Source: Bacteroidota bacterium
GTDB lineage: Bacteria > Bacteroidota > Bacteroidia > Bacteroidales > GCA-2748055
Assembly: GCA_039714775.1 (NCBI GenBank)
Contig: JBDLIQ010000003.1
Location: 13,226 to 77,225, forward strand
DNA length: 64,000 nucleotides
Reading direction: 5' to 3'
The translations under genes and the position numbers were made by a program. Of this stretch, positions 18,944-38,363 are shown piece by piece. Within the stretch, counting starts at the first letter, position 1. Each line of letters starts with the position of its first letter. The notes beneath the pieces are model-generated. The model saw nothing but the letters and a program-made list of their open reading frames with translations. It was not told where the DNA came from and made no database searches.

Positions 18944-19477
18944 ATGATAGTTTCCGGCAAGCGCATTACATATCATAGCAAGGAATTCAAAGAGCTGTTC
19001 GATCAGTTGTTTCCTTCCATGTGCGTTGTGGCGTCTATGGTTCTCAAAGATGATGCAAAGGGAAAAGATGTCGCCCAGGAAGCTATGATTAAGCTCTGGC
19101 AAAAGCCGGATGAGAATTTCGCATCTGTGAATTCCCTGAAAGCATACTTATACGTACTGGTCAGGAATGCCTGTATAAGCCAGCTGCGGAAAGAGAAGGA
19201 TCTTCATTTTGACTCCATAGAGAATCATTATGAGCTTGTCAATGAAAAAGATCTTCTGCATGAAGTCCTGCGGGAGGAGACCTATAACCTGTTGCATAAG
19301 GCCATTGATGAATTATCCCCACAAGCCAGGAAGGTCATGCAGTTGACCATAAACGGGCTGACCAATAGTGAGATCTCTGATCGGATAGAAGTTTCAATCA
19401 ATACAGTGAAGACAGTGAAAAAGAGAGCCTATAAAACAGTAAGGGAAAAACTGGGGTCCCATTTTTTTTACAATTAG
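18944..19477 (+). CDS. ECF-type RNA polymerase sigma-70 factor
   Basis: Region 2 (DVAQEAMIKLW, YLYVLVRNACIS) and region 4 HTH (LTNSEISDRIEVSINTVKTVKKRA). The ATG at 18944 is preferred over the TTG at 18926. Confidence 0.85.
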   Translation: MIVSGKRITYHSKEFKELFDQLFPSMCVVASMVLKDDAKGKDVAQEAMIKLWQKPDENFASVNSLKAYLYVLVRNACISQLRKEKDLHFDSIENHYELVNEKDLLHEVLREETYNLLHKAIDELSPQARKVMQLTINGLTNSEISDRIEVSINTVKTVKKRAYKTVREKLGSHFFYN

Positions 19478-19545
19478 TAAGGTAACCATGTCACCCACCG
19501 TCTTTGTTTGCTGCGTCCTATTGGTGGGATAGAAAAAGTGAGTAA

Positions 19546-20757
19546 ATGGATTTGAAAAACAAAATATCACATCAGATACAAATCGCCAATCTTCTTGTAA
19601 AAGAGGCTTTTGGTACACTTACCGGGGAAGAGATATCAAGATTGGATATATGGAAAGAGGAACAATCCAATAAGCTTCTGTATGATGGGCTGTTTGAAGG
19701 TGATAAGAGGAAGAGAAGAGAGAAAATAGCAGATGGGATCGATCTGGAAAAGGAGTGGAGCACATTCCTTGAGGGACAGGAGGTCAAAAGAGGTATTGCA
19801 AGAAGAATCCAAAGGATCAGGCTATATGCTGCTGCAGCTTCAATAGCTGTGCTGATTGCTGTTTCTTCTGCTTTGATGTTGAGACAAGGGGGATTGAAAG
19901 GTCTGCTGCCAGTCTTGGTTTCCCAACCTGTAGTGATCCCTCCGGGACAAACCCGTGCTGAACTCATTCTGAATGATGGTGAAGTAATCTACCTGGAAGA
20001 TGTCAGAACTACCTTGATCCAGGATGATGAAATCGTGATCTCAAATGACTGCGGCATTCTGGAATATGAAAGCCGGGAAACAGAAGCTGAAACAGTGGCA
20101 TTGAATACGTTGAAGGTTCCGAGAGGAGGAGAGTATATGCTCATCCTGGAAGATAGTACAATTGTCTGGTTAAACTCGGAAACCCGGATAACCTACCCGG
20201 TTTACTTTTCGGGAAAAGAGCGGAAAGTAGAATTGACCGGAGAGGCCTTTTTCAAGGTGGCCAGGGACGAGCAAAGACCTTTTATTGTGGAGACCAATCA
20301 GCAAGAGGTGAAGGTGTTGGGAACAGCTTTCAATATCTCTGCATACCCCGGTGAAGAGAGTATTTACACGACCTTGGTAGAAGGTTCAGTGGAGGTTAGT
20401 TTTCCCGGGGAGGGTGACCAGCCGGTTAGAAAAGAGGTGATTGAGCCCAACCAGCAGCTGATCTATGGACACGCTTCTCACACTGTAGAACTTATTGAAG
20501 TATCCCCCTATTTGTATACCTCTTGGAAAGATGGCCGTTTTGTGTTCAGAAATGAGCCTCTCATCTCCATCATGGGGACCTTGTCAAGATGGTATGATAT
20601 TGATGTGGTATTCGAGGATGAGGGCATTAAGGAGGTTACATTCACCGGCGACTTGAAACGCTATTCAGATCTCACGGATCTGCTCAGGATCCTGGAATTG
20701 GAAATGTCGGTGAGAACGAAGATAGTGGACCATAACCGATTACTTATTAAGTACTGA
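19546..20757 (+). CDS. FecR-family anti-sigma factor
   Basis: 403 aa with a single central TM helix (LYAAAASIAVLIAVSSALML). The FecR periplasmic domain has GEAFFKVARDEQRPFIV and VLGTAFNISAY motifs. Confidence 0.85.
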   Translation: MDLKNKISHQIQIANLLVKEAFGTLTGEEISRLDIWKEEQSNKLLYDGLFEGDKRKRREKIADGIDLEKEWSTFLEGQEVKRGIARRIQRIRLYAAAASIAVLIAVSSALMLRQGGLKGLLPVLVSQPVVIPPGQTRAELILNDGEVIYLEDVRTTLIQDDEIVISNDCGILEYESRETEAETVALNTLKVPRGGEYMLILEDSTIVWLNSETRITYPVYFSGKERKVELTGEAFFKVARDEQRPFIVETNQQEVKVLGTAFNISAYPGEESIYTTLVEGSVEVSFPGEGDQPVRKEVIEPNQQLIYGHASHTVELIEVSPYLYTSWKDGRFVFRNEPLISIMGTLSRWYDIDVVFEDEGIKEVTFTGDLKRYSDLTDLLRILELEMSVRTKIVDHNRLLIKY

Positions 20758-20783
20758 TCGAGATATCTTTTCAATAAGCATTT

Positions 20784-23700
20784 ATGAAGCTGTTCAAGCC
20801 TTTTATTTTTCTGTTAGTGACCCTTTCCTCTATTCATTCTTACTCGCAAACGGCAAGGATCACTGTCAATGCCAACGATGTTGACATCAATTACATTTTT
20901 GATGAGATTCGGAAACAGGCAAACTATGGCTTCTTCTTTAACGATAATAGCGTATCTGATATTGATCATATTTCCATTAACAAAACAGATGTTACGGTAA
21001 AGGAGATTCTCGATCAGATTTTCGAGAACACCAGTTACACATATACGTTCATCGATGATACCATTGTGATCAATAAAAAGAAAGAATCAGCTAAAGAACC
21101 TCCTCCCCTGGTCATCAAAAGCAGAATCTTAGGGGTTGTTACAGATGAAGAGGGGAAACCACTTCCGGGGGCAAATATTGTAGTGAAGGAATCAGGCAGG
21201 GGAACAATCACAGATATAAATGGTCGGTTTCAGGTGTATGTCTCCGATTTGTCAGGTTATATAGTGGTCTCTTTTATCGGTTTTGAAACCCGGGAGGTGG
21301 AGATCTCAGGCAGAACCGTCCTGAATATTCAAATGAAATCATCCGCACAGGAATTGGGCGAGGTGGTAGCCACCGGTTACTATACAGTGGATAAACGGGA
21401 ATTGACCAGTTCAATTAGTGTTATTAAGAGTGACGAGTTAAAGGAAATAGGGGCCCTTACGGTTGATGAGATGCTGGTTGGTAAGGCTGCAGGACTGATG
21501 GTTACGAACCTGAGTGCCACACCAGGTGCTGCTGCCAAGATAAGGGTCCGCTCCAGCAGTACATTTACAGGAGTTCAGGCACCGTTATGGGTGGTAGATG
21601 GAGTGATTTATGAGGACCCGGTACCGCTTTCTGCAGCCGAGATAAACAGTTTTGATAATGTGAATATTATCGGGAATGCGCTATCCGGGTTGAATCCCCA
21701 GGATATTGAATCCATCAGTGTACTAAAGGATGCTTCAGCTACAGCCATTTATGGTACCAGGGCAGCAAATGGAGTCATCGCGATCACAACCAAACGGGGA
21801 AAAGTGGGAAAGCCGGTCCTGACATACCAGACCAGTGTTGGTTATATGGACAGGCCGAAGTATTCTGACATGTACCTGATGAACTCCAAAGAACGCATTG
21901 ACCTGTCGCGTGAGATGTATGAAAGAAACCTGGGCACCATTGTTGAATATAACAACCGGGACTACCTGGGTTACGAAGGAGCCCTGAAATTGCTGTGGAA
22001 TGGTACCTATACATATGAAGAGTTCCAGAACCAGGTAAGCAGGCTGGAGACGATGAACACAGATTGGTTCGGGGAATTATACCAACCGACAATTAACCAG
22101 CAACATGCCATCAGCGTTTCCGGTGGTTCAACAAATGCCAGGTACTATACCTCTCTGGGGTTGAATAAAGATAATGGGGTTGAAAATGGAGTCGGGCTTA
22201 ACAGGATTACCGGTATGGCAAAACTGGATCTTGACTTAAGCAAGAATATCCTGTTCTCCCTTAAAATTAACGGATCGATACAGAAGGCGCGATACAACCA
22301 CTCTTCAATTAATAGTTTCAACACCGCCTCCGCTACCAGCAGGGCTGTCCCGGTGTGGGATGAGAACGGGGAGCTGTTTACCCAGAGCCGGGAGATCTAC
22401 AGGCGTCAGACCGGGGGAGAGATTGTATATGCAGATTACAGCATTCTGAATGAGATGGAGAATTCAGAACGGAATATTAACAATAAGAGCTTTGCTATAA
22501 CAGGGAACTTCAACTGGAAATTCTTAAATGATTTCAGCTTCCGAAGCATGTTCAGCTTCCGAAATACCACAAACCTTTCGGAAGAGTGGATCACGGAAGA
22601 CACATACTATATTTCACGGCTAAGGACTTACAGCGACTTTAATGACCTTGTTATTGAGGATGTTGCCAATGCTGCAACGGTACCATTCGGCGGGTTGTAC
22701 TCCGGGGGAATGGTTACCCAGGATGCATTTTCAATTACCAATAAATTGAATTACAGAAAGATTATAAAGAGTGATCATGCCATTAACCTGCATCTTGCAC
22801 AGGAAGTAAGGTCAACCAAATACTGGGGAGTTTCCAACTGGATGGCTCCGGGATACAACCATTCACAAGGTAGGAGTTTTATTATGCTGCCCAGGATAGA
22901 GATGGTTCCTCATGTCGGGCTTGATGTGAACAGTTATGATTACAAAAACATGATCTCATGGATGACCAGCAGCTCTTCTGATATCTATCCTTCTATTACT
23001 GATAAGATCAGCAACAGCCTTTCCGTTTTCGGTGTATTTGATTATTCTTACAAAGGCCGTTATATTCTGAACTTCAACGTTCGCAGTGATGGTTCCAACG
23101 CATTTGGTCAGTACGAGCGATACAAGTTTAAGCCGGTGTGGTCGGTATCGTCCCGGTGGAATATACACCGTGAGTCATTCTTTAACCGAACCGGTATCCT
23201 GGAGGAGTTGTCCCTTCGGACCTCATACGGGTTCAGGGGAACGATGCCCAATGTCAGTCCCTATCTATTGATAAGTGATTATGGCAGAAACCTGGCGGAA
23301 TACTATCCGGAGAATGTAGCCAACTTCCAGGCTTTCCCCAATGCCACTTTGCGCTGGGAGAGAACCTCGACATATAATACAGGGTTAAATTACTCATTAT
23401 GGCAGGGCCGGCTCAGCGGTGTGTTTGATTACAGTTATTCTAAAAGCATTGATCTCTTACAGGCCAGGCCTGTTTCCCAGGTAAATGGGGCCAGCACGCT
23501 CTTCTATAATTCCGGGAGTAAGGATGTTCAGAGTTTTGAAATGAATATCCGTTCAGTAAACATCGATCGCCCGAACTTCAAATGGAGCACGAATTATAAC
23601 CTATCTTATGAGAAGGACCGGGTTTTAGAGGGATTTGAAGAGGGAGCAGACAATACTACGGTGTACAACTATTTGTCCGGTTCTATTTATAGAACAGGAT

Positions 23701-24413
23701 TCCCCTCAAGTGCTTTCTTTTCGTACCAGTTTAATGGACTGGATGAGCAGGGTCTTCCAACATTTAAGAACCTGTATGACGAAACCAACGGGAGTATCGA
23801 TGACCATTTAAAGAATGTGCTGGTTTATGAAGGAAGCAGGATTCCCAGGTTTTATGGTGGATTTGGAACAGAAATCAAATATAAGAGTATCATGATATCG
23901 ACCAGGTTCAGCTATAAACTTGGATATAGAACCAGGCTGCTGAAGCTATTTAACCAGAACCAGAGTATGCCGCTTCCCTATGAAAACTCACGTGCCGAAT
24001 TCAATGACCGGTGGAGAGAACCGGGCGACGAACTGTACACGGACATTCCGGTGCTGAGTGACCAGGTATTGCGGTTTTCCGAAAACCCGGACAATGAAGA
24101 GGCAATATTGGTAAGTAATGATGGGCTGATCGTTCCTTATGGAGCCAATGCCTGGTGGATGTATGATTTCAGTGACGTGCGTGTGGTGAAAGGGGATCAC
24201 ATTCGCTGGCAAACAATCGCCATATCCTACATCATCCCGGTGCAACTGCTTCAAAAGCTGAATATAAGCAGTGCAAATATCAGTATCAGAATGAGAAACA
24301 TCGCAGTATGGTCGCTGGATAAGAGGCTTTTGGGACAGGATCCTGAACAGATAATGGGGCTGGGTATGCCCACGCTTCCAAATTACGGGTTGAGTTTAAA
24401 CATGAGTTTTTGA
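20784..24413 (+). CDS. SusC/RagA-family TonB-linked outer-membrane transporter with N-terminal STN signalling domain
   Basis: 1209 aa. Signal peptide, STN-like segment (ITVNANDVDINYIFDEIRKQANYGFFF), carboxypeptidase-regulatory-like domain (GVVTDEEGKPLPGANIVV...TDINGRF), plug (GVIAITTKRGK) and a C-terminal aromatic residue (...LSLNMSF). Confidence 0.9.
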   Translation: MKLFKPFIFLLVTLSSIHSYSQTARITVNANDVDINYIFDEIRKQANYGFFFNDNSVSDIDHISINKTDVTVKEILDQIFENTSYTYTFIDDTIVINKKKESAKEPPPLVIKSRILGVVTDEEGKPLPGANIVVKESGRGTITDINGRFQVYVSDLSGYIVVSFIGFETREVEISGRTVLNIQMKSSAQELGEVVATGYYTVDKRELTSSISVIKSDELKEIGALTVDEMLVGKAAGLMVTNLSATPGAAAKIRVRSSSTFTGVQAPLWVVDGVIYEDPVPLSAAEINSFDNVNIIGNALSGLNPQDIESISVLKDASATAIYGTRAANGVIAITTKRGKVGKPVLTYQTSVGYMDRPKYSDMYLMNSKERIDLSREMYERNLGTIVEYNNRDYLGYEGALKLLWNGTYTYEEFQNQVSRLETMNTDWFGELYQPTINQQHAISVSGGSTNARYYTSLGLNKDNGVENGVGLNRITGMAKLDLDLSKNILFSLKINGSIQKARYNHSSINSFNTASATSRAVPVWDENGELFTQSREIYRRQTGGEIVYADYSILNEMENSERNINNKSFAITGNFNWKFLNDFSFRSMFSFRNTTNLSEEWITEDTYYISRLRTYSDFNDLVIEDVANAATVPFGGLYSGGMVTQDAFSITNKLNYRKIIKSDHAINLHLAQEVRSTKYWGVSNWMAPGYNHSQGRSFIMLPRIEMVPHVGLDVNSYDYKNMISWMTSSSSDIYPSITDKISNSLSVFGVFDYSYKGRYILNFNVRSDGSNAFGQYERYKFKPVWSVSSRWNIHRESFFNRTGILEELSLRTSYGFRGTMPNVSPYLLISDYGRNLAEYYPENVANFQAFPNATLRWERTSTYNTGLNYSLWQGRLSGVFDYSYSKSIDLLQARPVSQVNGASTLFYNSGSKDVQSFEMNIRSVNIDRPNFKWSTNYNLSYEKDRVLEGFEEGADNTTVYNYLSGSIYRTGFPSSAFFSYQFNGLDEQGLPTFKNLYDETNGSIDDHLKNVLVYEGSRIPRFYGGFGTEIKYKSIMISTRFSYKLGYRTRLLKLFNQNQSMPLPYENSRAEFNDRWREPGDELYTDIPVLSDQVLRFSENPDNEEAILVSNDGLIVPYGANAWWMYDFSDVRVVKGDHIRWQTIAISYIIPVQLLQKLNISSANISIRMRNIAVWSLDKRLLGQDPEQIMGLGMPTLPNYGLSLNMSF

Positions 24414-24501
24414 TTTTGTTATGATGAAACGGCCATTGAAATATTTTGCCTTCAGCGAGCTCGCAAGCTCGGTTCATCTTTTCACAAAGGGATATAAATA
24501 T

Positions 24502-25935
24502 ATGAAACGGGTACTGGTAATACTGGTGGCAACATCCTTTTGGGGATGTGGCGGTTTTCTGGACGAAGTGGATCAGGATTTGTTGGTACCTGAGAAGCCG
24601 GATCATTTTGCCGCACTGCTGCTAAAGGAATTCAACAGGGAGTATCCGATTTTCCGCACGGTGGATTATATGACCGATAACATGACCGAGATCGCCTCCA
24701 TGTCATCGAAAAGCAAAAAGGCGCAAAAAACCACCTACACATGGCAGAGGGAAATTGAGATAGATGAAGAGGGTGAAAGGGTGTTCCAGATCAACAATGC
24801 CTGGCAGAATGCTTACGAAGACATTGCCATCGCAAACTATGTGATTGAATTGATTGATGTTTCAGACGGCGACCAGGATGAGAAGGACTATATTAAAGGT
24901 GAAGCCTGTTTCATCAGAGCCCTCTCCTATTTCAACTTATTGAACCTGTATGGCAAACCCTTTGACCCCGCCACTGAAGATGCCGATCTGGGGGTGCCCT
25001 TAAGGACCAATGTTGCTATAGAGAAAGTATATTACAGGAATACCGTGAGCGAGTGTTACCAACAAATTGAAAATGATATTGTCGACGCTGTTGACTTAAT
25101 CGAAGGAAGTGGTATCGAGAAGTCGAAATGGCATCCTGATGCTCGTACTTGCAAGCTACTCATGTCCCGCGTTAAGCTATACCAGCAGAAATGGGATGAA
25201 GCAATTGTGTATGCTTCCGAGGTAATCGATGAAGCTTATTTATCCCGGATCTACCAGGGGAAGGCATTTATAACGGATGATAATGATGAGGTCCTGTACT
25301 CATTCTACACGGTGAACCCGGTCATGTCGATTTACAGCTACGATGGAAGTATCAATCAGATGAGCTACAGTGCAAGTGAGGAGTTGTACAATCTATACGA
25401 TTCTTTGGATCAGCGAAGGGAGGCCTTCTTCTCCGTGGAGGTACTGGGGCCTGATACCTATTATCACCCCACAAAGTACTCTAACATGTTCACCAAACTG
25501 GGATATGGTAATTTTCGCGTAGCCGAAGCCTACCTGAACCGGGCCGAAGCATATGCACAGCTTGATGATGTGACCGGGGCTATTGAGGACATCAGATCCA
25601 TATTATTGTACAGGTACACTGATGCATCCGGGATCGTTTATCCGGCTTCCAATCCGGAAGTTCTTGACTTTATACTAACAGAGCGCAGGAAGGAGTTGTG
25701 TTTTGAAGATCATCACCGCTGGTTCGATTTGCGAAGAATGGAAGATCAACCGGAGATCAAACACGCTTTTACGCTGGTTGATATTTTCGGGGCCACTTAC
25801 GGAAAGGAGATTTACACGCTGCTTCCCGGGGATAACAACTACACACTCTCTATCCCGTTAAAAGAGCGGGAAATAAATCCTTTGATCCGGAATAATGACA
25901 GGTTTGAGAAGATCCCGGAGATGGTAAACAGGTGA
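24502..25935 (+). CDS. SusD/RagB-family outer-membrane lipoprotein
   Basis: ATG at 24502 gives MKRVLVILVATSFWGCGG (lipobox). C-terminal SusD hallmarks are AEAYLNRAEAYAQL and ERRKELCFEDHHRWFDLRRM. Confidence 0.9.
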   Translation: MKRVLVILVATSFWGCGGFLDEVDQDLLVPEKPDHFAALLLKEFNREYPIFRTVDYMTDNMTEIASMSSKSKKAQKTTYTWQREIEIDEEGERVFQINNAWQNAYEDIAIANYVIELIDVSDGDQDEKDYIKGEACFIRALSYFNLLNLYGKPFDPATEDADLGVPLRTNVAIEKVYYRNTVSECYQQIENDIVDAVDLIEGSGIEKSKWHPDARTCKLLMSRVKLYQQKWDEAIVYASEVIDEAYLSRIYQGKAFITDDNDEVLYSFYTVNPVMSIYSYDGSINQMSYSASEELYNLYDSLDQRREAFFSVEVLGPDTYYHPTKYSNMFTKLGYGNFRVAEAYLNRAEAYAQLDDVTGAIEDIRSILLYRYTDASGIVYPASNPEVLDFILTERRKELCFEDHHRWFDLRRMEDQPEIKHAFTLVDIFGATYGKEIYTLLPGDNNYTLSIPLKEREINPLIRNNDRFEKIPEMVNR

Positions 25936-25964
25936 CTTTATCCCGATATGTGTAAAATGGAAAA

Positions 25965-27014
25965 ATGATGAAACCTACGATATACCTGATCATAATTGCC
26001 ATGGCAATGATCGCATGCTCAAGGGAGGAGGAGCTTACTCCTTCCATGAAAGATGTGGACAGGGTGGCTACTCAGATCGATTTGTCTAAACCGCTTGTGA
26101 AATTCTTATACGAGACCTATAACTGTGGGATCCTGTATGAGTTTGATTTTACCCTCGATTTTGCCTACCTGGCATCCAGCCGGAACATTGTTTACAATTG
26201 GCAGATGGTTAACCTGGAGAAGCTGGATTCCTCCGATGTGGATTTTGCACTGGGCTTCCTGGAAGACAATGTTTTTCAGTATTTTAAGGATGGAATTGAG
26301 TCTGAAGGATCCCTCTATCAATCAGATTATTTTTTAAACCAACTCCCTTTTAAGGTCCTGGTCTGCCGCGAAGTGAATACCACGAATGGTTTTCTTTTTG
26401 ATCCTTTGACCCTTTCAGATTCCAGGGCTACAGATAATGGGACCGGCGTTTTACACTCTATAGGGAACGACCATACTTTTGTTTTTGGCGTGGACAGGAG
26501 GACGATTCTTGCCAGCAGCAAAAACTTCCATAAGTATCGCAACGATAACTTTTTCCTTTTCATGGTTTATGTGATGGAAAAGCATCACATGTACGACCTG
26601 ATCCTATCTCAATTTTTTGAAACAAGTATTCAGTACTTCGGGGAGAATATTGGCGATATGTACAAAAACGAGGGGTACATTGTGGATGAATATGGCCTGG
26701 TTGATAAGGAGTGGTTCCTGAACAGGGGTTTTGTGGATGCCAGGTACTTTTACGGCAGAGAAGGTTTGCCTGATGTGACCATCGGTGACCTCACCATTGA
26801 AAAGGCCATTAAAGGAATTTTTTATTTTCCCTCTTCAAATGAAGATTTTGTAAACAGTTATCTGAACGAGCTGATACATACCAATAGCTCAAAACTGGAC
26901 ACCTATCCTGGAATCATAAAAGAGAAGTTTATAATCCTGATCGAACAATTCATGGAATGGGGTGTGGATATCGTAGCCTTTAATCCTGAACTTAATTCTC
27001 TGTACAATGAATAG
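25965..27014 (+). CDS. hypothetical lipoprotein (SusCD-locus accessory)
   Basis: MMKPTIYLIIIAMAMIACS is a lipobox. I recognise no catalytic motif. The gene overlaps the next one by 8 nt. Confidence 0.6.
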   Translation: MMKPTIYLIIIAMAMIACSREEELTPSMKDVDRVATQIDLSKPLVKFLYETYNCGILYEFDFTLDFAYLASSRNIVYNWQMVNLEKLDSSDVDFALGFLEDNVFQYFKDGIESEGSLYQSDYFLNQLPFKVLVCREVNTTNGFLFDPLTLSDSRATDNGTGVLHSIGNDHTFVFGVDRRTILASSKNFHKYRNDNFFLFMVYVMEKHHMYDLILSQFFETSIQYFGENIGDMYKNEGYIVDEYGLVDKEWFLNRGFVDARYFYGREGLPDVTIGDLTIEKAIKGIFYFPSSNEDFVNSYLNELIHTNSSKLDTYPGIIKEKFIILIEQFMEWGVDIVAFNPELNSLYNE

Positions 27015-29997: not shown

Positions 29998-32754
29998 ATG
30001 AGGCACATCATCTTAACAGCACTCTTTTGTTTATTTTCTTTTCACAGTTACACGCAAACTACATCTGCAACTAACGGTTTGGTAACCGGTCAACTTGAAA
30101 ACGGGCTCGTCTACTATATCAATCCCAAAGGAGAAACCGGTAAAGTAAAACTGACCATGCAGTCAAAAGTAGGCGCTCTGGTGGAAACAAAAGATGAGCA
30201 TGGCTATGCACATTTCCTGGAGCACATGATGTTTAACGGAAGTGAAAACTATCCGGGACGCTCATGTTACCATGTGATGGAAGATATGGGAATGCGTCTG
30301 GGGGTAGAGTTTACAGCTTTTACCTCTTCGACCGACACGGAGTACAACCTGATTATTCCTGACAACAACGAAGCTTATCTCCGGGAAAGCCTGTTGCTGT
30401 TTAAAGACTGGATGTTCTTTCTTGACATGAAACAGGAGACCCTTGATCATGAAAGAAAAATTATCAAGGAGGAGATCAACCGCGGGGGCACACCGGCTTC
30501 CTATATGTTGTATGGAACAGAACTGGAGGGTCATGATGTGCTGGGAGACAAATCATCCATTGATAAAGTCAACCTGAAGCAATTGACCGGTTTCTACAAG
30601 AAGTATTATCGACCCGATATGCTGGCAGTTATCATTTATGGTGAGATAGACGAAAAGGTTGCCTTGAAGACCATTCAGGAAGTTTTTGGAACCATTTCGG
30701 AACCCACCACGGAAAAACCCCGGTTATTTCCTGATGTTTCGGGTAACAATGTCATTGACCGGACCAGGTTGCTGGGGACATCCGGAAACCGGTCCAGATT
30801 GTCTGTGTTGGCAAAATACCCTGCCAAAGAGATCTCATCGAGGGAGGATTTCAGGTCGGTTGTTGCTGTTTCTGTTTTCAAACAGATCATGGACCGAAGG
30901 TTGTCCGGGTCTTACACAGGTTCATACGTTTCCGGACAATGGAGAAACGCTTCCTTTCTACCGCACACCAGCTTCATGGGCGCTGAGATCTTTAGCAATA
31001 ATGGCAGTAGCTATAAAGATATGCTGAATGATCTTTGCTATGCATTTGCGCAGGCAAAGGAGCATGGTTTCAGCCAGGAGGAGATTGATTATGCAGTCAG
31101 AATCCAAATGAACTGGAAGGAAAAAAGCCGGAACAGGGAAGTTCTCGAGCTTGGAGAGATAAAGAGTGGATTCCTTCGTAATTCTGTAATTCTTTCAGGA
31201 AAAGAGAAGTATGAGCTCTATAAGAATTATACAAAGACCCTGAAACCGGCAGATATGGAAGCAATAACAGATCTTTTTCTGGCTTCAAAGAAGATCGTTT
31301 CTTTAGACAGCACAAGCGCTGCTTACTCCGGAGATCTTACGGATAATTATGTCTGGAACCAACTGGCTTCCATCGACTCCATTGACACAGAACCCTATCT
31401 GTTTAAGAGCCCCCCCGCTCCTGTAGGAGATGAAGATTCGATTGTTAACCTGGATGATCAGTTTATTTCAAAACCGGCTCCAGGATTGCTTCGGAAGGAG
31501 CATGTTGATAAGAACCTTGTACTTCTGGAATACGGGAATGGAGCAAAAGTGGTACTGCACAGAAATCCGAGGGAGAAAGTATCCGTGAAAATTGTCAGCC
31601 ATGGTGGATTGAACCTGATTCCTGTATCTGACCGGGCACTGTTCATGAACATGCTGCGGTACCTTGGAGAAGGATATGCAGGTATATCTGGAGAAACAGC
31701 TTTTCAGCTGGAAAGAGCGTGTGGTATCTACTTTTCTGAAAAGGCAGACCATTACAGCCATCAGGTAGAGATGAAGGGAACCCGGGAGCACTTTAAGGAG
31801 ATGTGCCAGGTACTCAATCTGAGGCTGACAGAAGCAAATGAATTGTCAGAAGAGGCATTTGAAGAGAAGCTTAGCATGGCAAAAAGGTACTTAATGATTG
31901 AGCAGGATATTGAGTATAAGGAGTATAAAGGTCGGGTGAATTTGTCGCGGGTAGAGATCGGACTCGATACTTCAAATGTTGCTGAATGTGCTGGCCGGTT
32001 TACCAAATACCGGAACAGACTGGTTGATCAGATGAACCATGGTGTTGTTTACATCAGTGGCGATCTGCCTGAAAGGGCTGAGGAGTACATTACAGCATAC
32101 CTTGCTTCGGTTTTCGGACCAGAGAACGAGCTTGAAGTGCCGGGCAGTGACCCGGATATTTTAGCAGATGAGGTTGTCATGAAGCAATTCACGTGGAGAA
32201 GAACGGTCTCTATTGTAGAATATTTGTTTACTACAATTCCGGATCAGGTTAAGTTGAAAGACTACCTGATCCTGGAGGGAATTGCACGGCATGCCAACAA
32301 CATGATGCTTAAAAAGTTAAGAGCAGAACACGGGTTGGTCTATTCAACCGGAACCACTGCATATACCAGAACATATCCAGATGATTTTACCTCACTGAGT
32401 ATCCGGTATATGATTGATCCCGAGAATATTGATACCTCCCTGATTGTGATGAACGATCTGTTGGATGGGATGAGTACAGGTACCATCTCACTGAAAGAGA
32501 CTGACCGGATTAAAGCCCTCCTTCAAACCATTTTCATTACATCGTTCTATGACCCGGAAACCCTGAGCACTGTCTGGGCAGACATGTTCATGAGTTTTGA
32601 TAAAGCGTTTTCGAGAGACGAGTTACAGGAAACCATTCATTCCATCTCTCCTGAGGATATTCAATCGGCATTGCACAGGATCTTGCAGATGAAGAACCAC
32701 TATATCCTGATCCGAAGGCCAGAGAGTACCAGTGGAAAAACAATTGATAAATAA
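29998..32754 (+). CDS. M16 (pitrilysin/insulinase) family zinc peptidase, double-domain
   Basis: ATG at 29998 gives the signal peptide MRHIILTALFCLFSFHSYTQ. The inverted zinc motif HFLEHMMFNGS (HxxEH) is present. The size, about 920 aa, indicates fused active and inactive halves. Confidence 0.85.
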   Translation: MRHIILTALFCLFSFHSYTQTTSATNGLVTGQLENGLVYYINPKGETGKVKLTMQSKVGALVETKDEHGYAHFLEHMMFNGSENYPGRSCYHVMEDMGMRLGVEFTAFTSSTDTEYNLIIPDNNEAYLRESLLLFKDWMFFLDMKQETLDHERKIIKEEINRGGTPASYMLYGTELEGHDVLGDKSSIDKVNLKQLTGFYKKYYRPDMLAVIIYGEIDEKVALKTIQEVFGTISEPTTEKPRLFPDVSGNNVIDRTRLLGTSGNRSRLSVLAKYPAKEISSREDFRSVVAVSVFKQIMDRRLSGSYTGSYVSGQWRNASFLPHTSFMGAEIFSNNGSSYKDMLNDLCYAFAQAKEHGFSQEEIDYAVRIQMNWKEKSRNREVLELGEIKSGFLRNSVILSGKEKYELYKNYTKTLKPADMEAITDLFLASKKIVSLDSTSAAYSGDLTDNYVWNQLASIDSIDTEPYLFKSPPAPVGDEDSIVNLDDQFISKPAPGLLRKEHVDKNLVLLEYGNGAKVVLHRNPREKVSVKIVSHGGLNLIPVSDRALFMNMLRYLGEGYAGISGETAFQLERACGIYFSEKADHYSHQVEMKGTREHFKEMCQVLNLRLTEANELSEEAFEEKLSMAKRYLMIEQDIEYKEYKGRVNLSRVEIGLDTSNVAECAGRFTKYRNRLVDQMNHGVVYISGDLPERAEEYITAYLASVFGPENELEVPGSDPDILADEVVMKQFTWRRTVSIVEYLFTTIPDQVKLKDYLILEGIARHANNMMLKKLRAEHGLVYSTGTTAYTRTYPDDFTSLSIRYMIDPENIDTSLIVMNDLLDGMSTGTISLKETDRIKALLQTIFITSFYDPETLSTVWADMFMSFDKAFSRDELQETIHSISPEDIQSALHRILQMKNHYILIRRPESTSGKTIDK

Positions 32755-32770
32755 ACAGATAACAGTTCAC

Positions 32771-34144
32771 ATGCAACTTCTAAATAAACACATGCACAAC
32801 AAGATAACCCTGTTATTCATGCTTCTTCTTCTTCCCTTCATGGGAGATTTAGCTGCACAGGGAGTTCAATTCAGGGAGATTACATTTGAGGAGGCCCTGG
32901 AACGGGCAGAGGAGGAGAATAAATTGATCTACATCGATTTTTATACAGACTGGTGCGGGCCGTGCAAATCCATGACCCATCATGTCTTTCCGGATGCCGA
33001 AGTCGGTGCTTTATACAACAAGCATTTTATTAACCTGAAAATTAACCCGGAAAAGCAGGGTCGTCCCACTGCAGGTAAATATGGTGTGGGTGCCTATCCA
33101 ACCTCTCTGTTCGTTGACCACAATGGAGATATTGTTTACAGAATGGTGGGAGGCCTGAGCATCGAGGGTATGTTGGAGATGGGCAAAACCAGCCTGGAAT
33201 CAGTGCAGAGCAACTATAGTTTGCCGAAACTGCAAGCGCTTTTCCCCGAAAAACAGGATGATGAGGAGTTCCTGAAAATGTATTTCACCAAAATGATCGC
33301 GAATGGAGAGTCACCCGTGGTTGGAATTGAGGCCTGGTTGAAGGTGCAAACCAGTATCAGGGAGAGCGATGTGGACATGATGGAGTTTTTGTTGGATCAT
33401 TCAAAGTACTTGATCGTCGATGGGAAGGCAGAGGAGATATTTGATGCCAATTATGATGAATACTGGGATATCGCTACGCGTCATGAAGAGCTGGCTTTGA
33501 AACAGATGAGAGGGTTGATGATCCAAAACACCAAAAAACTGGCTTATCAAAAGGAGGATCCCCTGCTGATGCATAGCTTCATTGCAAACTGGAAGGAACT
33601 TCCGGAGGCGACCCGGAATGGGAATCTGAACGATTTTGAGCTGGATGCTTTATGGTTTGAGAAGAATACAGAAGATTATAAGATACTGGCAACCAGATAT
33701 CTGGATAGCATCATTACTGCAAAAACCCTTGATCAGATCAGGAGTGAGGATCAGGAAGCCTATGAAGCGTTTGTTGCAAAAATGGGCAACAGGCAAAGCC
33801 TGATAGGTAATTATATAAAGGAGAATCTCAGGCAGGGCAAAGAAGCCCGTCTCCAGATGTTTGCCATTGTCAAGACCGGAAGAAAATACCTTGACCTTGC
33901 CGAACAAAGGTCAGATTACAGAAAGCTGAATGAATGGATAGAATATGGTTTGAATCTTGTACCGGTAGCATATGATATGGAAAATTTCCAGGCCAGTGTG
34001 CTCTACAAACAGGGGAAGGTTAAAAAGGCCATCAAAGCAAAAGAATCTGCTTTGTCCAAAATGCCGGAGGATCATAAGAAAAGGGGAACAGTGAAGCGGG
34101 AGTTGGAGAGGATGAGAACCGGGCTTTCGAGTTCACACCAGTAA
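32771..34144 (+). CDS. exported thioredoxin-domain protein with helical C-terminal domain
   Basis: Signal peptide ...KITLLFMLLLLPFMGDLAAQ and the canonical DWCGPC motif. The start is ambiguous (32771 or 32792). The 32732 start would overlap the M16 gene. Confidence 0.8.
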   Translation: MQLLNKHMHNKITLLFMLLLLPFMGDLAAQGVQFREITFEEALERAEEENKLIYIDFYTDWCGPCKSMTHHVFPDAEVGALYNKHFINLKINPEKQGRPTAGKYGVGAYPTSLFVDHNGDIVYRMVGGLSIEGMLEMGKTSLESVQSNYSLPKLQALFPEKQDDEEFLKMYFTKMIANGESPVVGIEAWLKVQTSIRESDVDMMEFLLDHSKYLIVDGKAEEIFDANYDEYWDIATRHEELALKQMRGLMIQNTKKLAYQKEDPLLMHSFIANWKELPEATRNGNLNDFELDALWFEKNTEDYKILATRYLDSIITAKTLDQIRSEDQEAYEAFVAKMGNRQSLIGNYIKENLRQGKEARLQMFAIVKTGRKYLDLAEQRSDYRKLNEWIEYGLNLVPVAYDMENFQASVLYKQGKVKKAIKAKESALSKMPEDHKKRGTVKRELERMRTGLSSSHQ

Positions 34145-34203
34145 AATGTTTTTATGGTAAGTTAAACAAGGCCAATTTATTAACTTAATTATTTTCTTGT
34201 AAA

Positions 34204-35535
34204 ATGAGGATATATATTATACTCTGGATGATTGCTCTGCCGTTCATGGCAATGGCACAGGGAATTCATTTTGAGAAAGGGACCTTTGACGAGGCGCTGG
34301 GAAAAGCAAAAGCTGAAAACAAACTTCTTTTCGTGGACGGGTATGCAGTTTGGTGCAGCCCCTGCCTGGCGATGGCAAATACCGTATTCAAAGATGAAGA
34401 GGTAGGAAAATACTTTGATGAATACCTGGTTGCCATTAAAGTTGATGTAGAAAAAGGGGAGGGGCCTGCCATTTCAAAGCGATATGGAATCGTGGGCCTG
34501 CCAGGCTATGTGTTTATCGATGGGGATGGTTTGGTGGTTTACCGGTTTTCATCTTCCATGCCTGCGGCTGATTTTATGAGAGAGGTAAAGCTGGCCGTTT
34601 CGTATGCAGATGATCCAAACAGCGTGGGCCGCCTGGGTGAACGTTATAAAGTGGAAAAGAGCGATACTGCTTTGGTGAAGCTCTATCTTGATAAATTGAA
34701 GGAGAGCAAATCAACGGGTTATACCAATGTACTGGAACACTACCTGTCTGTTCAGACCACCATGGCAGATTCAAGTAAAGAGATGGTTGTATTCCTGGCA
34801 GATCATTATCGTGAAATCATACTGGGCGGGGAGGCAGAACGGATTACCCGGGATAACTATGGTTCGGACGCGTGGAAATTGTATGTCAGGAAAGATATCC
34901 GGGAAGTGTATCAGAGGCTGGAGCACGGAATTGTAGAAAACACCATCAGGTATGCGACCGAAAACAGAGATACTGTAATGCTGGAGCTCGCTCTTCAGCG
35001 TGAGGAAGAGATCAATGCCGGGAAAGGGATGAAGACCAACCCGTCACAACGCAGAAGAGTATATGCCAGATATTACCTGGAAACAAACATGGGTGAGAAG
35101 TACAAAGCCCTGGTCAGAGATGAGAATGAGGCATTCATCAATCAGCTGAATGCAGAGGAGTTGCGTTCGGGATATCTTGACTGGCAGAAAAGGAAAGCCG
35201 CAGGAGAAGAAAAAGCACAATACACAAGGCCACATTCAATAAGAACAAGCCTGCAAATTCAAAACATGGTTAAAAATTATGGCCGGTTCGTCACCACCGG
35301 GCAGGAGAAGCAAGACGTGCTTCGTTGGGCGAAGAGAGGCTATGACATTATACCGGGAGATCCGGCCATGATGAGTGTATATGCTGATCTTTTGTATCTG
35401 TTTGATAACAGGGAAGCGGGTTTAAAAGAGAAAGAGGAGGCATTTCGAATTGCTTCTGAAAGACAGTATGAGGGAAGATGGAAAATCGAACAGAACCTGG
35501 AATTAATGAGAAAAGGAGAACATATCTCATTGTGA
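34204..35535 (+). CDS. exported thioredoxin-domain protein, paralog of the preceding gene
   Basis: Signal peptide MRIYIILWMIALPFMAMAQG and motif VWCSPC. The architecture matches 32771-34144. Confidence 0.8.
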   Translation: MRIYIILWMIALPFMAMAQGIHFEKGTFDEALGKAKAENKLLFVDGYAVWCSPCLAMANTVFKDEEVGKYFDEYLVAIKVDVEKGEGPAISKRYGIVGLPGYVFIDGDGLVVYRFSSSMPAADFMREVKLAVSYADDPNSVGRLGERYKVEKSDTALVKLYLDKLKESKSTGYTNVLEHYLSVQTTMADSSKEMVVFLADHYREIILGGEAERITRDNYGSDAWKLYVRKDIREVYQRLEHGIVENTIRYATENRDTVMLELALQREEEINAGKGMKTNPSQRRRVYARYYLETNMGEKYKALVRDENEAFINQLNAEELRSGYLDWQKRKAAGEEKAQYTRPHSIRTSLQIQNMVKNYGRFVTTGQEKQDVLRWAKRGYDIIPGDPAMMSVYADLLYLFDNREAGLKEKEEAFRIASERQYEGRWKIEQNLELMRKGEHISL

Positions 35536-35549
35536 AAAAAACCGAAAAA

Positions 35550-38363
35550 ATGATGAAACGTTATTATATTCTTACAGCCATTTCCCTGATTATTTCAGTG
35601 AATTTAAGTGCACAATTTGAAGATTTGTCACAGCCCATTCCGTTTGACCCTGAAGTCAGGACGGGTGTACTTGAGAATGGGTTGACCTATTATATTCGTC
35701 ATAATGAGCAGCCCAGGGAGCGGGCAAGTTTCTATATCATTCAGAATGTGGGAGCCATCCTGGAAGAGGAGGATCAGAACGGACTGGCGCACTTTCTGGA
35801 GCACATGGCCTTTAATGGTACGCAGCATTTCCCCGGGAAGAGTATGCTGAATACACTTGAACACCATGGAATAAAATTCGGGCGTGATATCAATGCATAT
35901 ACCTCCACTGATGAGACAGTTTATAACATCAGCAATGTGCCGGTTACTGACAATTTGCTGGATACCTGCCTGTTGATACTGAACGACTGGTCGAACTACC
36001 TGTTGCTTACAGAAGAGGAGATTGATGCAGAACGGGGTGTTATATCCGAGGAGTGGAGAACCCGCCGAGATGCTGGTTTCAGGATCCGTGCACAAATCGC
36101 ACCGCTCCTGTATAACCATTCCAAGTATGCAAAACGCGATGTTATAGGAGATTTAAATGTAATTCAGAACTTCGACCCTGAAACGCTGAGGGCATTTTAC
36201 CACGACTGGTACCGCACCGACCTGCAGGCTATTGCAATAGTCGGGGATGTGGATGTTGATGAAGTTGAGAAGAAAATAGAAGCACTCTTTTCAAAGATCC
36301 CCCCGGTTGAGCATCCGAAAGAGAGGTTATATGTCGAGATTGAAGATAACCCAGCTCCAAACTTCGTTTTAGCCACAGATAAAGAGTTGCAAAAATCAAA
36401 CATTAGCCTGCTCATCCGGCATAAAAAAGAGGAAAAACCGAATCTTGCAAAGTTAAGGGATAAGTATATCCGGTCGGCCTTTAACCAGTTGATGAGTGCG
36501 AGAATAGCCGAACTGGTGCAAAATGGTGATGCACCCTTCCTGAATGGTACTGTTCAGGTGAGTGGATTTAAGCATGGATATGATCTCTTTAACATCAGTG
36601 CCACTGCCAATGAGGGAGAAGAAGCTGAAGCACTCCTGGGTGTTCTGGTGGAGCTGGAAAGAGTCTTGCGACATGGCTTTACCAATTCCGAGCTGGAGCG
36701 TGTGAAGACCAATATGCAGGTGGGTGCTGAGATGAAATACAAAAAAAGGGGGCAGATCAGCAATGACGCATTTTGTAAGTCGCTGAAGTCTGTTTACCTG
36801 GATCAGGAAGTACTTTTAGGCAGTGAGTTTGTATATGAATTTTCACAATATGCCATTCCCTCGCTTACACTTGAGGAGGTATCCTCCCAGGCTGGCAAGT
36901 GGTACGCCGAGATGAACCAGACCATTATTATTACAGGGCCGGAGAAGGAGGGCATACACATAGACAGGCAAAAAGTATCTGCCCTTTTTGATGAAGTGAA
37001 GAATCTGGAGATTGATCCATATAAGGATGAGTTTACCGGTACCGACCTTCTCAACGGAACCATATCAGCCGGGGGGGAAGTTGTAGAAGAAAGGAGACTG
37101 GAGGAATTTGATGCCGTTGAATGGAAACTATCCAATGGAGCGACCGTAATACATCGGTTTGCCGATTTTGAGAAAGAGAGTATTGCCCTGTACGCTTTCA
37201 GTTACGGAGGCTCCTCCCTGTACGAAGATGTAGATGTCCCTTCGGTATCAGTTGTGGGCAGCTTCGTGGGTTCCTATGGTATTGGCGAGTACGATATGAC
37301 CTCTTATCGTAAGGTAATGACAGGCTCTACCGCCAGATGCAATTTTGGAATCGGCTCATATACCGAAACCCTCAACGGAACTTCCTCTCCGAAAGATTTC
37401 GAAGAGATGTTGCAGCTTGCATACATGCGATTCGAGATGCCACGCTTCGATATGGATGTATTCGAGAATCTGATGGAGAGAAATTATGAGTCGGTAAAGA
37501 ACAGATCTGTCAATCCATCCACGATCATGCGTGATACACTGAACCATATTCTCACCGATGGCCACCCCCGTGTGAGGAGATTCGATAGTATATTCCTGAG
37601 TGATGTTGATTTTCATCGCATTGAAGAGATCTATCGTGATCGCATCACCGATGCAAGCGATTTCACCTTCATAATCGTGGGAGATATCCCGGAAGAGACT
37701 GCAAAACCCCTGGTGGCAAAGTACATTGGCGGAATAAAAGATATAGACCGGCAGGAGAGCTGGAAGGATCGCCAGGTGAACTTTCCGGAAGGAAGACAAA
37801 AAAGAGAGATTGCCATTCCTATGACCGAGGCAAAATCTACTGTGGTGATTAAAATGCAAATGGATGCTCCTTATACCCGCGAGAATATCATTCACCAGTC
37901 GATCCTGGCCTCTATCCTCCGTTTGCGGTATACCGAGGAGATCCGTGAAAAGGAGGGTGGAACTTATGGGGTCAGTGTGAAAGCCGGCTCATCGAGGTTA
38001 CCCAAAGGAAAATTGAGCCTCTCCATTCAGTTTGATTGTGATCCTGACAAAGCCGAATACTTAACCAGCCTGGTGTACAAGGAGCTTGAACATATTAAGA
38101 CCCATGTTAACGATGATGACCTTAATAAGGTGGTGAGGAATTTGAGAAAGAACAGCGAACAGTCCAAGCCCCATAATAGCTACTGGATGAACGCTTTAAA
38201 CGCCTATTATATGACCGGAATGAATGCATTGGAACCAGCTTATTTTGACGACATTGTAAACAATGTTACAGTTCAGGATATTCAGGATGCGGCGAAATGG
38301 TTCCTGGAGCATTCAGATGAGGTCCAGGTGATCTTTTATCCTGAAAAGGCAAATAATTCCTGA
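35550..38363 (+). CDS. M16 family zinc peptidase, double-domain (second copy)
   Basis: ATG at 35550 gives MMKRYYILTAISLIISVNLSAQ. It has HFLEHMAFNGT (HxxEH) and the downstream glutamate region ERGVISEEWR. Confidence 0.85.
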   Translation: MMKRYYILTAISLIISVNLSAQFEDLSQPIPFDPEVRTGVLENGLTYYIRHNEQPRERASFYIIQNVGAILEEEDQNGLAHFLEHMAFNGTQHFPGKSMLNTLEHHGIKFGRDINAYTSTDETVYNISNVPVTDNLLDTCLLILNDWSNYLLLTEEEIDAERGVISEEWRTRRDAGFRIRAQIAPLLYNHSKYAKRDVIGDLNVIQNFDPETLRAFYHDWYRTDLQAIAIVGDVDVDEVEKKIEALFSKIPPVEHPKERLYVEIEDNPAPNFVLATDKELQKSNISLLIRHKKEEKPNLAKLRDKYIRSAFNQLMSARIAELVQNGDAPFLNGTVQVSGFKHGYDLFNISATANEGEEAEALLGVLVELERVLRHGFTNSELERVKTNMQVGAEMKYKKRGQISNDAFCKSLKSVYLDQEVLLGSEFVYEFSQYAIPSLTLEEVSSQAGKWYAEMNQTIIITGPEKEGIHIDRQKVSALFDEVKNLEIDPYKDEFTGTDLLNGTISAGGEVVEERRLEEFDAVEWKLSNGATVIHRFADFEKESIALYAFSYGGSSLYEDVDVPSVSVVGSFVGSYGIGEYDMTSYRKVMTGSTARCNFGIGSYTETLNGTSSPKDFEEMLQLAYMRFEMPRFDMDVFENLMERNYESVKNRSVNPSTIMRDTLNHILTDGHPRVRRFDSIFLSDVDFHRIEEIYRDRITDASDFTFIIVGDIPEETAKPLVAKYIGGIKDIDRQESWKDRQVNFPEGRQKREIAIPMTEAKSTVVIKMQMDAPYTRENIIHQSILASILRLRYTEEIREKEGGTYGVSVKAGSSRLPKGKLSLSIQFDCDPDKAEYLTSLVYKELEHIKTHVNDDDLNKVVRNLRKNSEQSKPHNSYWMNALNAYYMTGMNALEPAYFDDIVNNVTVQDIQDAAKWFLEHSDEVQVIFYPEKANNS

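Follow-up and report, generated by a model that had tools for sequence, protein, structure and literature searches.

Gene content of the locus

The stretch of DNA analyzed here, referred to as the window, is 64,000 nucleotides (nt) long and comes from a Bacteroidota bacterium (GenBank assembly GCA_039714775.1, contig JBDLIQ010000003.1, positions 13,226 to 77,225 of the forward strand). It carries a locus on the plus strand (18,944-42,095) in which a SusC/SusD transporter pair with its regulators is followed by accessory lipoproteins, exported thioredoxins and two exported M16 metallopeptidases. An earlier note, made by a model from the letters of the window, had listed the genes between 18,944 and 38,363 and had placed all of them on one strand at short distances from one another. 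Pfam and NCBIfam matches and the inspection of open reading frames (ORFs) bore out this list with its coordinates, and the intergenic gaps range from −8 to 88 nt when the likely true starts are used.

Two regulatory genes stand at the head of the locus. An extracytoplasmic function (ECF)-type sigma-70 factor, a cytoplasmic regulator, is encoded at 18,944-19,477 (Sigma70_r2, r4_2 and Sigma70_ECF) and scored 84.9 bits against TIGR02937, for which the cut-off is 42.9. It is followed by a FecR-type anti-sigma factor (19,546-20,757) with FecR and FecR_C domains and a single transmembrane segment, the hydrophobic stretch covering approximately residues 92-113. The next gene (20,784-24,413) encodes a SusC/RagA TonB-dependent transporter, which is ButC-like and has an N-terminal STN domain. 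The SusC assignment is based on TIGR04056 (635.1 bits, cut-off 368) and TIGR04057 (65 bits, cut-off 46.2). The STN domain scored 33.1 bits (cut-off 28.4), the Plug domain matched with an E-value of 1.8e-14, and a CarboxypepD_reg domain is present too. An STN domain in SusC, together with ECF and FecR genes immediately 5' of it, is the layout of trans-envelope signaling, and this layout is repeated in related loci. The SusD-family lid lipoprotein (24,502-25,935; SusD-like_3 and SusD_RagB) has an ORF that opens at 24,421; the likely start is 24,502, yielding the lipobox start MKRVLVILVATSFWGC.

Downstream of SusD are two lipoproteins, LP1 (25,965-27,014, lipobox IACSREEE) and LP2 (27,007-28,494, lipobox FIFSC), and a lipoprotein with a TlpA/ResA fold and a WCGHC motif (28,519-29,958). 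M16a, an exported four-domain M16 metallopeptidase that is PqqL-like, is encoded at 29,998-32,754 (Peptidase_M16 and M16_C; HFLEHMMFNG). Its likely start at 29,998 gives the signal peptide MRHIILTALFCLFSFHSYT in front of a Gln. Two paralogous periplasmic long thioredoxins of the same architecture (Thioredoxin, Thioredoxin_7 and DsbH) come next, TrxLa with the motif WCGPC (32,792-34,144, likely start) and TrxLb with WCSPC (34,204-35,535). M16b, the second exported four-domain M16 metallopeptidase, belongs to the PqqL/FusC clade (35,550-38,363, likely start; HFLEHMAFNG).

The signal peptides that had been ascribed to all of these genes were found for the envelope proteins; the sigma factor and the anti-sigma factor are not exported. 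In those exported proteins that are not lipoproteins, the mature chain starts with Gln, preceded by SYS, SYT, LAA, LSA or SYG at the end of the signal peptide. A Gln at this position is usual for signal-peptidase-I substrates in Bacteroidota. No glycoside hydrolase (GH), polysaccharide lyase or carbohydrate esterase family was matched by Pfam or NCBIfam in the 13 genes of the low-GC island that holds the locus, in agreement with the earlier statement that carbohydrate-active enzymes (CAZymes) are absent.

Conservation of the gene arrangement

The LP2 family served as the anchor for a survey of related loci, of the kind that the earlier note had proposed; its homologues span marine and other Bacteroidota. 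The survey comprised nine neighborhoods with precomputed Pfam annotation and a genome-wide scan that gave 31 loci. Each locus was scored with the proteins of the window, and the counts given below are over the 32 non-redundant loci with sufficient downstream sequence. SusC, SusD, LP1 and LP2 are common to all 32 loci. FecR is present in 29 and the ECF sigma factor in 27. SusCD occurs with long thioredoxins in 27 loci, at 2-4 copies each, and with M16 peptidases also in 27, while at least one of the two is found in 28. Judged by sequence comparison, the gene arrangement is conserved far beyond chance.

At least five Bacteroidota families are represented among these loci. Synteny was seen in Prolixibacteraceae, Marinilabiliaceae, Flavobacteriaceae, Algoriphagus, Sphingobacterium and Prevotella, and the carriers include Maribellus, Draconibacterium, Mangrovibacterium, Saccharicrinis, Carboxylicivirga, many Flavobacteriaceae, Algoriphagus, Sphingobacterium and a Prevotella. 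The locus of Flavobacterium granuli (L038) has a different layout, in which a TlpA-like–M16–Trx–Trx–M16 module is divergent from the sigma–SusCD–LP1–LP2 unit and a DsbD gene follows LP2. The module is inverted in this species yet still adjacent, which indicates that the linkage outlasts rearrangement.

CAZymes were found neither inside approximately 36 loci nor as a recurring family in their flanks. The only recurrent enzymes across the loci are proteases and reductases. A SusC/SusD pair without linked CAZymes, and with no CAZyme recurrence among its relatives, is in line with the earlier view that this is not a classical polysaccharide utilization locus (PUL).

The transporter and the surface lipoproteins

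The closest solved structure to the SusC of the window is ButC (8YPT/8YPU), with an E-value of 1.6e-97, and the closest to the SusD is ButD (8YPT_A), with an E-value of 1.1e-27. The E-values for SusC against glycan SusCs are 1e-60 and 2e-53, against RagA 1e-43 and against BT2264 4.5e-27. ButCD of Bacteroides fragilis imports BfUbb, an 8-kDa disulfide-containing ubiquitin homologue and a toxin that exploits this transporter (PMC11467351).

Structural homology searches on the two accessory lipoproteins, another suggestion of the earlier note, gave a weak match to 4l7a for LP1 and Ig/FN3-like domains for LP2. The LP1 family is small and has no Pfam match in any of its members even at E ≤ 1 and no NCBIfam match, and a search of the PDB with its profile returned nothing. 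The AlphaFold2 (AF2) model of LP1 has a pLDDT of 85. Only one fold match is credible, to the putative Zn metallopeptidase lipoprotein 4l7a of Bacteroides, with a probability of 0.93 but a TM-score of 0.33-0.42. No His or Cys is invariant in the family, and NE[LM]I[H/F] stands in place of HExxH. We considered LP1 as a Peptidase_Mx1 or SusCD-associated zinc metallohydrolase and rejected this assignment on account of the missing family match, the missing HExxH and the weak fold likeness. Going by the model, LP1 may have a degenerate zincin-like fold without a metal site and may bind the substrate, probably exposed at the surface, an assignment of low confidence.

LP2 has no Pfam or NCBIfam match. 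Its AF2 model (pLDDT 89) shows a DUF4595-like, YD-repeat-like beta domain in addition to two Ig/FN3-like domains. The fold matches are FN3, cadherin and adhesin modules, 4ghb (the "porin-like" BACUNI_01323) and an SGBP-B, and weak RHS-repeat matches occur in 9 of 30 LP2 members. Surface binding proteins that accompany SusCD are typically built in this way, and we propose from the modeled fold that LP2 is one of them.

The SusD gene of an uncultured Saccharicrinis (L004/L010, 7,426-8,875) is broken into ORFs of 261 and 238 amino acids, representing either a frameshift/pseudogene or a long-read sequencing error. SusC is similarly split in a Marinifilum (L030).

The M16 peptidases and other proteases

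In M16a, the HFLEH motif is accompanied by ERKIIKEE approximately 80 residues downstream; in M16b, HFLEH is paired with ERGVISEE. HxxEH is present in every full-length (>700 amino acids) M16 orthologue checked, and the downstream Glu motif, E[R/K]xxxxEE, is found in all M16b and most M16a orthologues. With the zinc motif and the third ligand present, both M16a and M16b are predicted to be active.

M16b matches E. coli PqqL over its full length with an E-value of 1.5e-75 and Pectobacterium FusC with an E-value of 9e-40. M16a is closest to PqqL (6ofs, E-value 4e-44). M16b is the best-conserved enzyme of the module, its orthologues showing 40-57% identity. It also matches PDB entry 9LDY (916 residues) with an E-value of 2.5e-175. 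No paper for this entry was found in the searchable literature; the structure may come from a related Bacteroidota system. The linkage of an exported PqqL/FusC-type M16 with a TonB-dependent transporter holds in 27 of the 32 loci. An exported trypsin-like protease (GSSGGP) of approximately 300 amino acids lies 3' of the thioredoxin pair in three loci (L020, L023 and L031). In the last of these, from Prevotella, this protease follows the thioredoxin pair and M16 is absent.

The redox components

TrxLa and TrxLb, each approximately 445 amino acids in length, consist of an N-terminal thioredoxin domain and a predicted helical C-terminal domain of approximately 300 amino acids with putative tetratricopeptide repeat (TPR)-like repeats. 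The CxxC pair provides the only cysteines in each protein. The earlier note had recognized two exported paralogous thioredoxins with WCGPC and WCSPC, and these stood up well. The motif WC[G/A/S/V/K]PC is intact in 64 of 64 orthologues of TrxLa and TrxLb, and CxxC is kept in all 15 distant representatives of the family, one of which has WCIPC. Across the related loci, TrxLb always adjoins TrxLa. A search of PDB sequences gave a match to 2kuc (E-value 3e-32).

An exhaustive HMMER search with the C-terminal domain returned 50 cluster representatives among 1.84e9 proteins, and nearly all full-length members of this family have identical length and layout. The C-domain profile matches consensus TPR proteins over the last ~70 residues only. 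Pfam has nothing for this domain and nothing for the N-terminal domain of the TlpA-like protein. The most distant long-thioredoxin family member examined lies within a SusCD locus. By their sequences, the long thioredoxins are a conserved, predicted redox component that forms a very small dedicated family.

A full-length DsbD protein or a stand-alone DsbD-N (alpha-domain) protein adjoins 7 of the 32 loci. In two loci of Flavobacteriaceae (L020 and L023), the genes after LP2 read Trx–Trx–S1 protease–M16–DsbD-N–DsbD on one strand. DsbD passes electrons from the cytoplasm to periplasmic reductases. From the adjacent DsbD or DsbD-N and the type of motif we infer that the reaction carried out by the long thioredoxins would be reduction and not oxidation.

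The TlpA-type protein had been taken as the headline redox component in the earlier note, and this emphasis could not be maintained. The protein has a 335-residue N-terminal domain followed by a C-terminal thioredoxin fold (AhpC-TSA, Redoxin and Thioredoxin_8; residues 345-467), with matches to 2lja (E-value 2e-20) and to TlpA (1jfu, E-value 9e-12). It falls below the TlpA equivalog, scoring 56.6 bits against NF047696 with a cut-off of 230. Full-length orthologues occur in approximately eight loci only. In the nearest relatives, Maribellus and Draconibacterium, WSGQS or WSGPS replaces CxxC; of the other orthologues, three have no cysteine motif and one has WCGAC, and GYS also occurs among the orthologues. 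Because few loci carry an orthologue and the CxxC is often lost, the TlpA-like protein would be an optional part of the system and not its core redox part.

One contig from the Logan collection (L039) has two convergent SusCD loci, each ending in a distant relative of the long thioredoxins, and no M16. One of the two loci has a 300-amino-acid lipoprotein, and the other has DUF4843 and PKD_2 lipoproteins, which we take to be of the BT2261/2262 type. The arrangement suggests that thioredoxin-plus-TPR proteins may serve SusCD systems beyond the LP1/LP2 family. A lead to BT2260–2268 was dropped as irrelevant.

Proposed function of the locus

What can the locus do with a transporter, two peptidases and a pair of thioredoxins? 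Its gene content, its linkage, its motifs, its export signals and its family relationships point to a SusCD-based locus for the utilization of a protein or peptide, that is, a Bacteroidota counterpart of the protease-associated import systems with a reductive module added. We put the probability of this reading at approximately 0.55. The general idea of import, reduction and cleavage of a peptide or protein had already been put forward in the earlier note. It gains strongly from the linkage of SusCD with CxxC thioredoxins and M16 peptidases, from the DsbD proteins in seven loci, from the kinship to ButCD and from the lack of a recurrent CAZyme. The weight given to TlpA and the boundaries of the locus had to be revised, and the substrates that the earlier note had named (toxins, knottin-like peptides and inhibitors) are conjecture.

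The steps might be arranged as follows. The substrate would be a small, cysteine-rich protein with disulfide bonds, or peptide fragments cross-linked by disulfides, captured by SusD, LP1 and LP2, with a propeller protein secreted through the type IX secretion system (T9SS) and encoded 3' of M16b possibly helping in surface capture. Binding would be signaled from the STN domain of SusC to FecR, releasing the ECF sigma factor and inducing the locus, a regulation proposed from domain content only. The ButC-like SusC would then take the substrate in, powered by TonB. In the periplasm, two or three dedicated thioredoxin-plus-TPR-like proteins would bind the substrate and reduce its disulfides, thereby unfolding the chain, and DsbD and DsbD-N would hold the long thioredoxins reduced. 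The unfolded chain would be cut inside the chambers of the two PqqL/FusC-type M16 peptidases, and general peptide transporters would take up the products. The substrate class and the order of the steps are, like the redox direction, proposals drawn from the genes. A bolder version, on which we would bet somewhat below even odds, is that these loci form a distinct class of SusCD "protein utilization locus", in which a thioredoxin-plus-TPR pair fed by DsbD/DsbD-N hands its substrate to PqqL-type proteases and thereby lets marine and other Bacteroidota import and catabolize folded, disulfide-stabilized, protease-resistant proteins. In that case, the loci would hint at what the clade of ButCD-like transporters natively does, and the T9SS-secreted propeller protein might be an extracellular capture factor.

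Several observations weigh against a protein or peptide utilization locus. Four loci (L005, L026, L027 and L034) have the SusCD-LP1-LP2 core with no thioredoxin or M16 nearby. They are among the most divergent loci, with LP2 at ≤34% identity, and come mostly from gut Bacteroidales. These four loci indicate that the core can work, or be encoded, without the redox/protease module. In Mangrovibacterium lignilyticum (L037, 18,548-21,238), a SASA esterase and a GH27 (melibiase) are encoded 3' of M16b and the TPR protein on the same strand. No inner-membrane transporter and no TonB gene is present at the locus of the window, and neither DsbD nor DsbD-N is encoded within the 64 kb. The fold assignment of LP1 is weak because of its low TM-score. 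Scans for sigma-70 promoters and terminators inside the locus, which exclude Bacteroidota promoters, gave counts equal to those of shuffled sequence. A search of sequencing runs for the locus returned two marine DNA metagenomes and no RNA runs.

Alternative explanations

The two peptidases belong to the clade of PqqL and FusC, whose characterized member cleaves imported ferredoxin for iron, and one may ask whether the locus pirates a metal or cofactor as Fus does. What is imported would then be a small Cys-metal protein such as an algal [2Fe-2S] ferredoxin, a rubredoxin-like protein or a metallothionein, and the thioredoxin-plus-TPR and M16 proteins would free iron, zinc or sulfur, not amino acids. 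ECF/FecR/STN signaling is typical of iron-uptake transporters, and the carriers are mostly marine and often algae-associated. Small iron proteins have been proposed as general substrates of such systems, with redox-active partners noted (Grinter et al. 2019, PMC6793856). Against this, the loci examined have no iron-related gene, be it a Fur-regulated marker, a FusD-like ABC iron transporter or a FusB-like TonB, the SusC lies outside the FusA/YddB family, and disulfide reduction is the simplest reading of the canonical WCGPC motif and the DsbD linkage. We consider metal or cofactor piracy unlikely, although it is the strongest of the alternatives. Somewhat less likely still is an ECF-run function in envelope defense or quality control, by which the cell would repair or degrade its own damaged or mis-disulfide-bonded proteins, or import and destroy antimicrobial peptides or bacteriocins. 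Pairs of ECF sigma and anti-sigma factors often control envelope stress, and ButCD-type transporters do admit a toxin. Thioredoxin-plus-TPR proteins of the CnoX type guard proteins under oxidative stress (PMC10998233, PMC6282202), but the long thioredoxins have no detectable close kinship to CnoX among the best 60 of 213 PDB matches. A sigma factor paired with an STN-bearing SusC is moreover the signature of ligand-induced signaling and not of stress sensing. The presence of SusCD and two surface lipoproteins in all 32 loci is hard to square with internal repair, and the deliberate import of a toxin would be costly.

Most SusCD loci target glycans, and the locus could serve a glycan or glycoprotein, with the matching CAZymes lying elsewhere. 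The thioredoxins and M16 peptidases would then act on the protein part of a glycoconjugate or be linked by coincidence only. The domain build of LP2 resembles that of surface glycan-binding proteins, the SASA esterase and GH27 follow the cluster in Mangrovibacterium, and other parts of the window carry a GH2 gene and a weak GH43-like one. We nevertheless regard a glycan target as improbable, with zero CAZymes inside approximately 36 loci and none recurrent in the flanks, proteases and reductases as the only recurrent enzymes, a SusCD nearest to a protein importer, and the GH genes of the window placed outside the low-GC island. Least probable by far is that the locus matures or recycles a peptide made by the cell itself, such as a bacteriocin or a ribosomally synthesized and post-translationally modified peptide (RiPP), with M16 trimming the leader and the thioredoxins handling the disulfides. 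M16 pairs do occur in some RiPP clusters (AlbE/AlbF-like), with a weak AlbF match here, and in Tenacibaculum aestuarii (L003/L013, 14,584-15,050) two ORFs of 62 and 85 amino acids lie between M16a and the thioredoxins. These ORFs are not conserved elsewhere, however, and no small-ORF family recurs across the loci. In the window, M16a and TrxLa are only ~37 nt apart. Genes for biosynthesis or export are absent, and the transporter is an importer with a signaling domain.

The SASA/GH27 pair of Mangrovibacterium is the sole glycan-related neighbor seen across the loci.

Relation to known systems

Protease-associated import systems are known from Pectobacterium (Fus, with FusA/FusB/FusC/FusD) and from E. 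coli (YddB/PqqL). In these systems, a small protein enters through a TonB-dependent transporter and is then cleaved by an M16 enzyme (PMC6793856). They have been described in Proteobacteria only, with possible redox partners noted, and SusC was treated as a separate, highly divergent group (PMC6793856). The locus of the window resembles them in the linkage of a TonB-dependent transporter to an exported four-domain M16 of the PqqL/FusC clade, in a sporadic, niche-linked distribution and, as a concept, in the import of a small folded protein for periplasmic processing. It differs in having SusC/SusD with two accessory lipoproteins in place of a FusA/YddB-type barrel, and two M16 paralogues. Its regulators are of the ECF/FecR/STN type, whereas Fur/iron control is known for Fus. 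It also has a dedicated thioredoxin-plus-TPR-like pair, with DsbD linkage in related loci. Unlike Fus, neither the locus nor its relatives have equivalents of FusB or FusD, a TonB-like gene and an ABC transporter, respectively.

ButCD, the nearest solved homologue of both SusC and SusD, offers a second comparison. Its locus also has no CAZymes and contains a metallopeptidase-type gene, and the transporter imports a small disulfide-containing protein. In contrast to the locus of the window, the ButCD locus has no ECF/FecR pair, no LP1/LP2, no thioredoxins and no M16; the neighboring protease is of the ZnMc type. Oligopeptides, and not glycans, are bound or imported by two further SusC/SusD systems, RagAB of Porphyromonas gingivalis and BT2261-2264 of B. 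thetaiotaomicron. BT2261-2264 shares with the locus the presence of two extra surface lipoproteins, but the sequences of both systems are much more distant from the SusC of the window than ButC is. To our knowledge, neither a linked reductase/M16 module nor trans-envelope signaling has been described for RagAB or BT2261-2264.

The long thioredoxins recall the chaperedoxins CnoX/YbbN, in which an N-terminal thioredoxin domain is followed by a TPR-type helical domain for binding unfolded clients and which are cytoplasmic and protective (PMC10998233, PMC6282202). The long thioredoxins would have a similar build if their C-terminal domain is TPR-like as predicted. The long thioredoxins differ from CnoX in their signal peptides, their canonical WCxPC and their membership in a small family of their own, and YbbN is not among the best 60 of their 213 PDB sequence matches. 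The likeness would therefore be an analogy of architecture and not a matter of membership. With classical trans-envelope-signaling PULs the locus shares the order of ECF sigma, anti-sigma, STN-bearing SusC and SusD as well as the accessory surface lipoproteins; unlike them, it has no CAZymes, and reductases and peptidases are its only enzymes.

We found no report in the searchable literature that links SusCD with thioredoxins and M16 peptidases. All the parts are of known kinds, and it is the combination of a signaling SusCD, LP1/LP2, thioredoxin-plus-TPR proteins, PqqL-type proteases and DsbD linkage that is apparently undescribed. SusCD systems have been studied almost entirely as glycan importers. 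If the proposed function is correct, protein import and processing would extend to Bacteroidota, and reductive unfolding in the periplasm would be an added step in the protein-import pathway. A new, very small thioredoxin-plus-TPR family with a testable role would be defined. The loci would give a handle on the native function of ButCD-like transporters, which bacterial toxins exploit, and would bear on how marine Bacteroidota recycle protease-resistant Cys-rich proteins and hence on nitrogen and sulfur turnover. Some carriers can be cultured, among them Flavobacterium granuli DSM 19729, Zhouia amylolytica and Algoriphagus zhangzhouensis, which makes the idea directly testable.

Boundaries of the unit and the low-GC island

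The end of the locus at 38,363, as given by the earlier note, leaves out a recurrent gene at 38,471-41,140, whose product is the T9SS-secreted protein mentioned above (Por_Secre_tail, Cadherin-like and weak ELWxxDGT matches). This protein has an N-terminal domain of approximately 450 amino acids with ELWxxDG-like repeats, which is probably a propeller, followed by cadherin-like repeats and the Por_Secre_tail. The N-terminal domain recurs in 11 of the 32 loci at variable positions, sometimes between LP2 and the TlpA-like gene. The protein is a probable extracellular or surface accessory. The transcription unit probably runs to this gene and ends at an intrinsic-terminator-like hairpin on the plus strand (41,162-41,199), with a 17-bp stem followed by a T-run. 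No comparable hairpin was found between 19.4 and 38.4 kb. The intergenic regions upstream of susC are too divergent, and the starts too uncertain, for a comparison aimed at a shared ECF promoter motif.

A conserved GC-rich hairpin, GGGTGTTGGCGCACCC and its variants, lies directly 3' of the fecR stop codon in eight Marinilabiliales loci (L009, L010, L011, L016, L017, L018, L030 and L033). It may be a terminator or an attenuator that splits the regulators from susC. The fecR-susC gap in the window is 26 nt long and does not have this hairpin.

Exactly 13 genes, from the sigma factor to a TPR protein (18,944-42,095), are low in GC and in GC at third codon positions (GC3). The GC3 of this island is 0.41–0.55 as compared with 0.61–0.70 on either side, and the gaps at the junctions are 34 and 29 nt (18,909-18,944 and 42,095-42,125). 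An assembly chimera as the cause of the GC step was rejected, as contigs from independent assemblies cross both junctions with an even depth of coverage. The ends of the island showed no integrase, tRNA or flanking repeat, and the 64-kb window has no tRNA genes and no Rfam matches. The closest relatives of the island are low-GC Prolixibacteraceae, with 45-68% protein identity. The island has the look of a single acquired unit, and the whole locus seems to have been gained by horizontal transfer long ago.

The last gene of the island (41,250-42,095, plus strand) encodes an exported TPR protein with TPR matches, and its GC3 is 0.51 as compared with 0.66 in the next gene. A TPR protein is also encoded 3' of M16b in Mangrovibacterium, with 25% identity over 141 amino acids only, and the Maribellus locus has no equivalent. 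Its membership in the system is uncertain.

Genomic context

The island splits an unusual and unrelated host cluster with genes for PQQ-like propellers, Fe–S proteins and NuoEF-type proteins (10,399-18,909 and 42,125-47,902). On the 5' side, four PQQ_2/BamB-like beta-propeller proteins are encoded in tandem, some of them with lipoboxes. The same side has an NHL-repeat protein and two 4Fe-4S proteins, one of which is a NapH-like polytopic Fer4_5 protein. The 3' side has a further propeller, a fusion of NuoE and NuoF that includes ferredoxin domains, and a GltD-like Fe-S flavoprotein. The cluster may encode an envelope-spanning electron-transfer system.

A second low-GC insert, consisting of a single gene (47,969-49,243; GC 0.42, GC3 0.36), is found amid high-GC genes. 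Its product is a lipoprotein with a weak GH43-like match below the Pfam threshold. This gene and the GH2 gene of the window are both outside the low-GC island. In the 5' part of the host cluster, the Fe-S ORFs at 17,031-17,612 and 17,533-18,909 overlap by 80 nt as listed, and the true start of the second is probably an internal Met farther downstream, near MPDRTPTRTLLIILLLLLAG.

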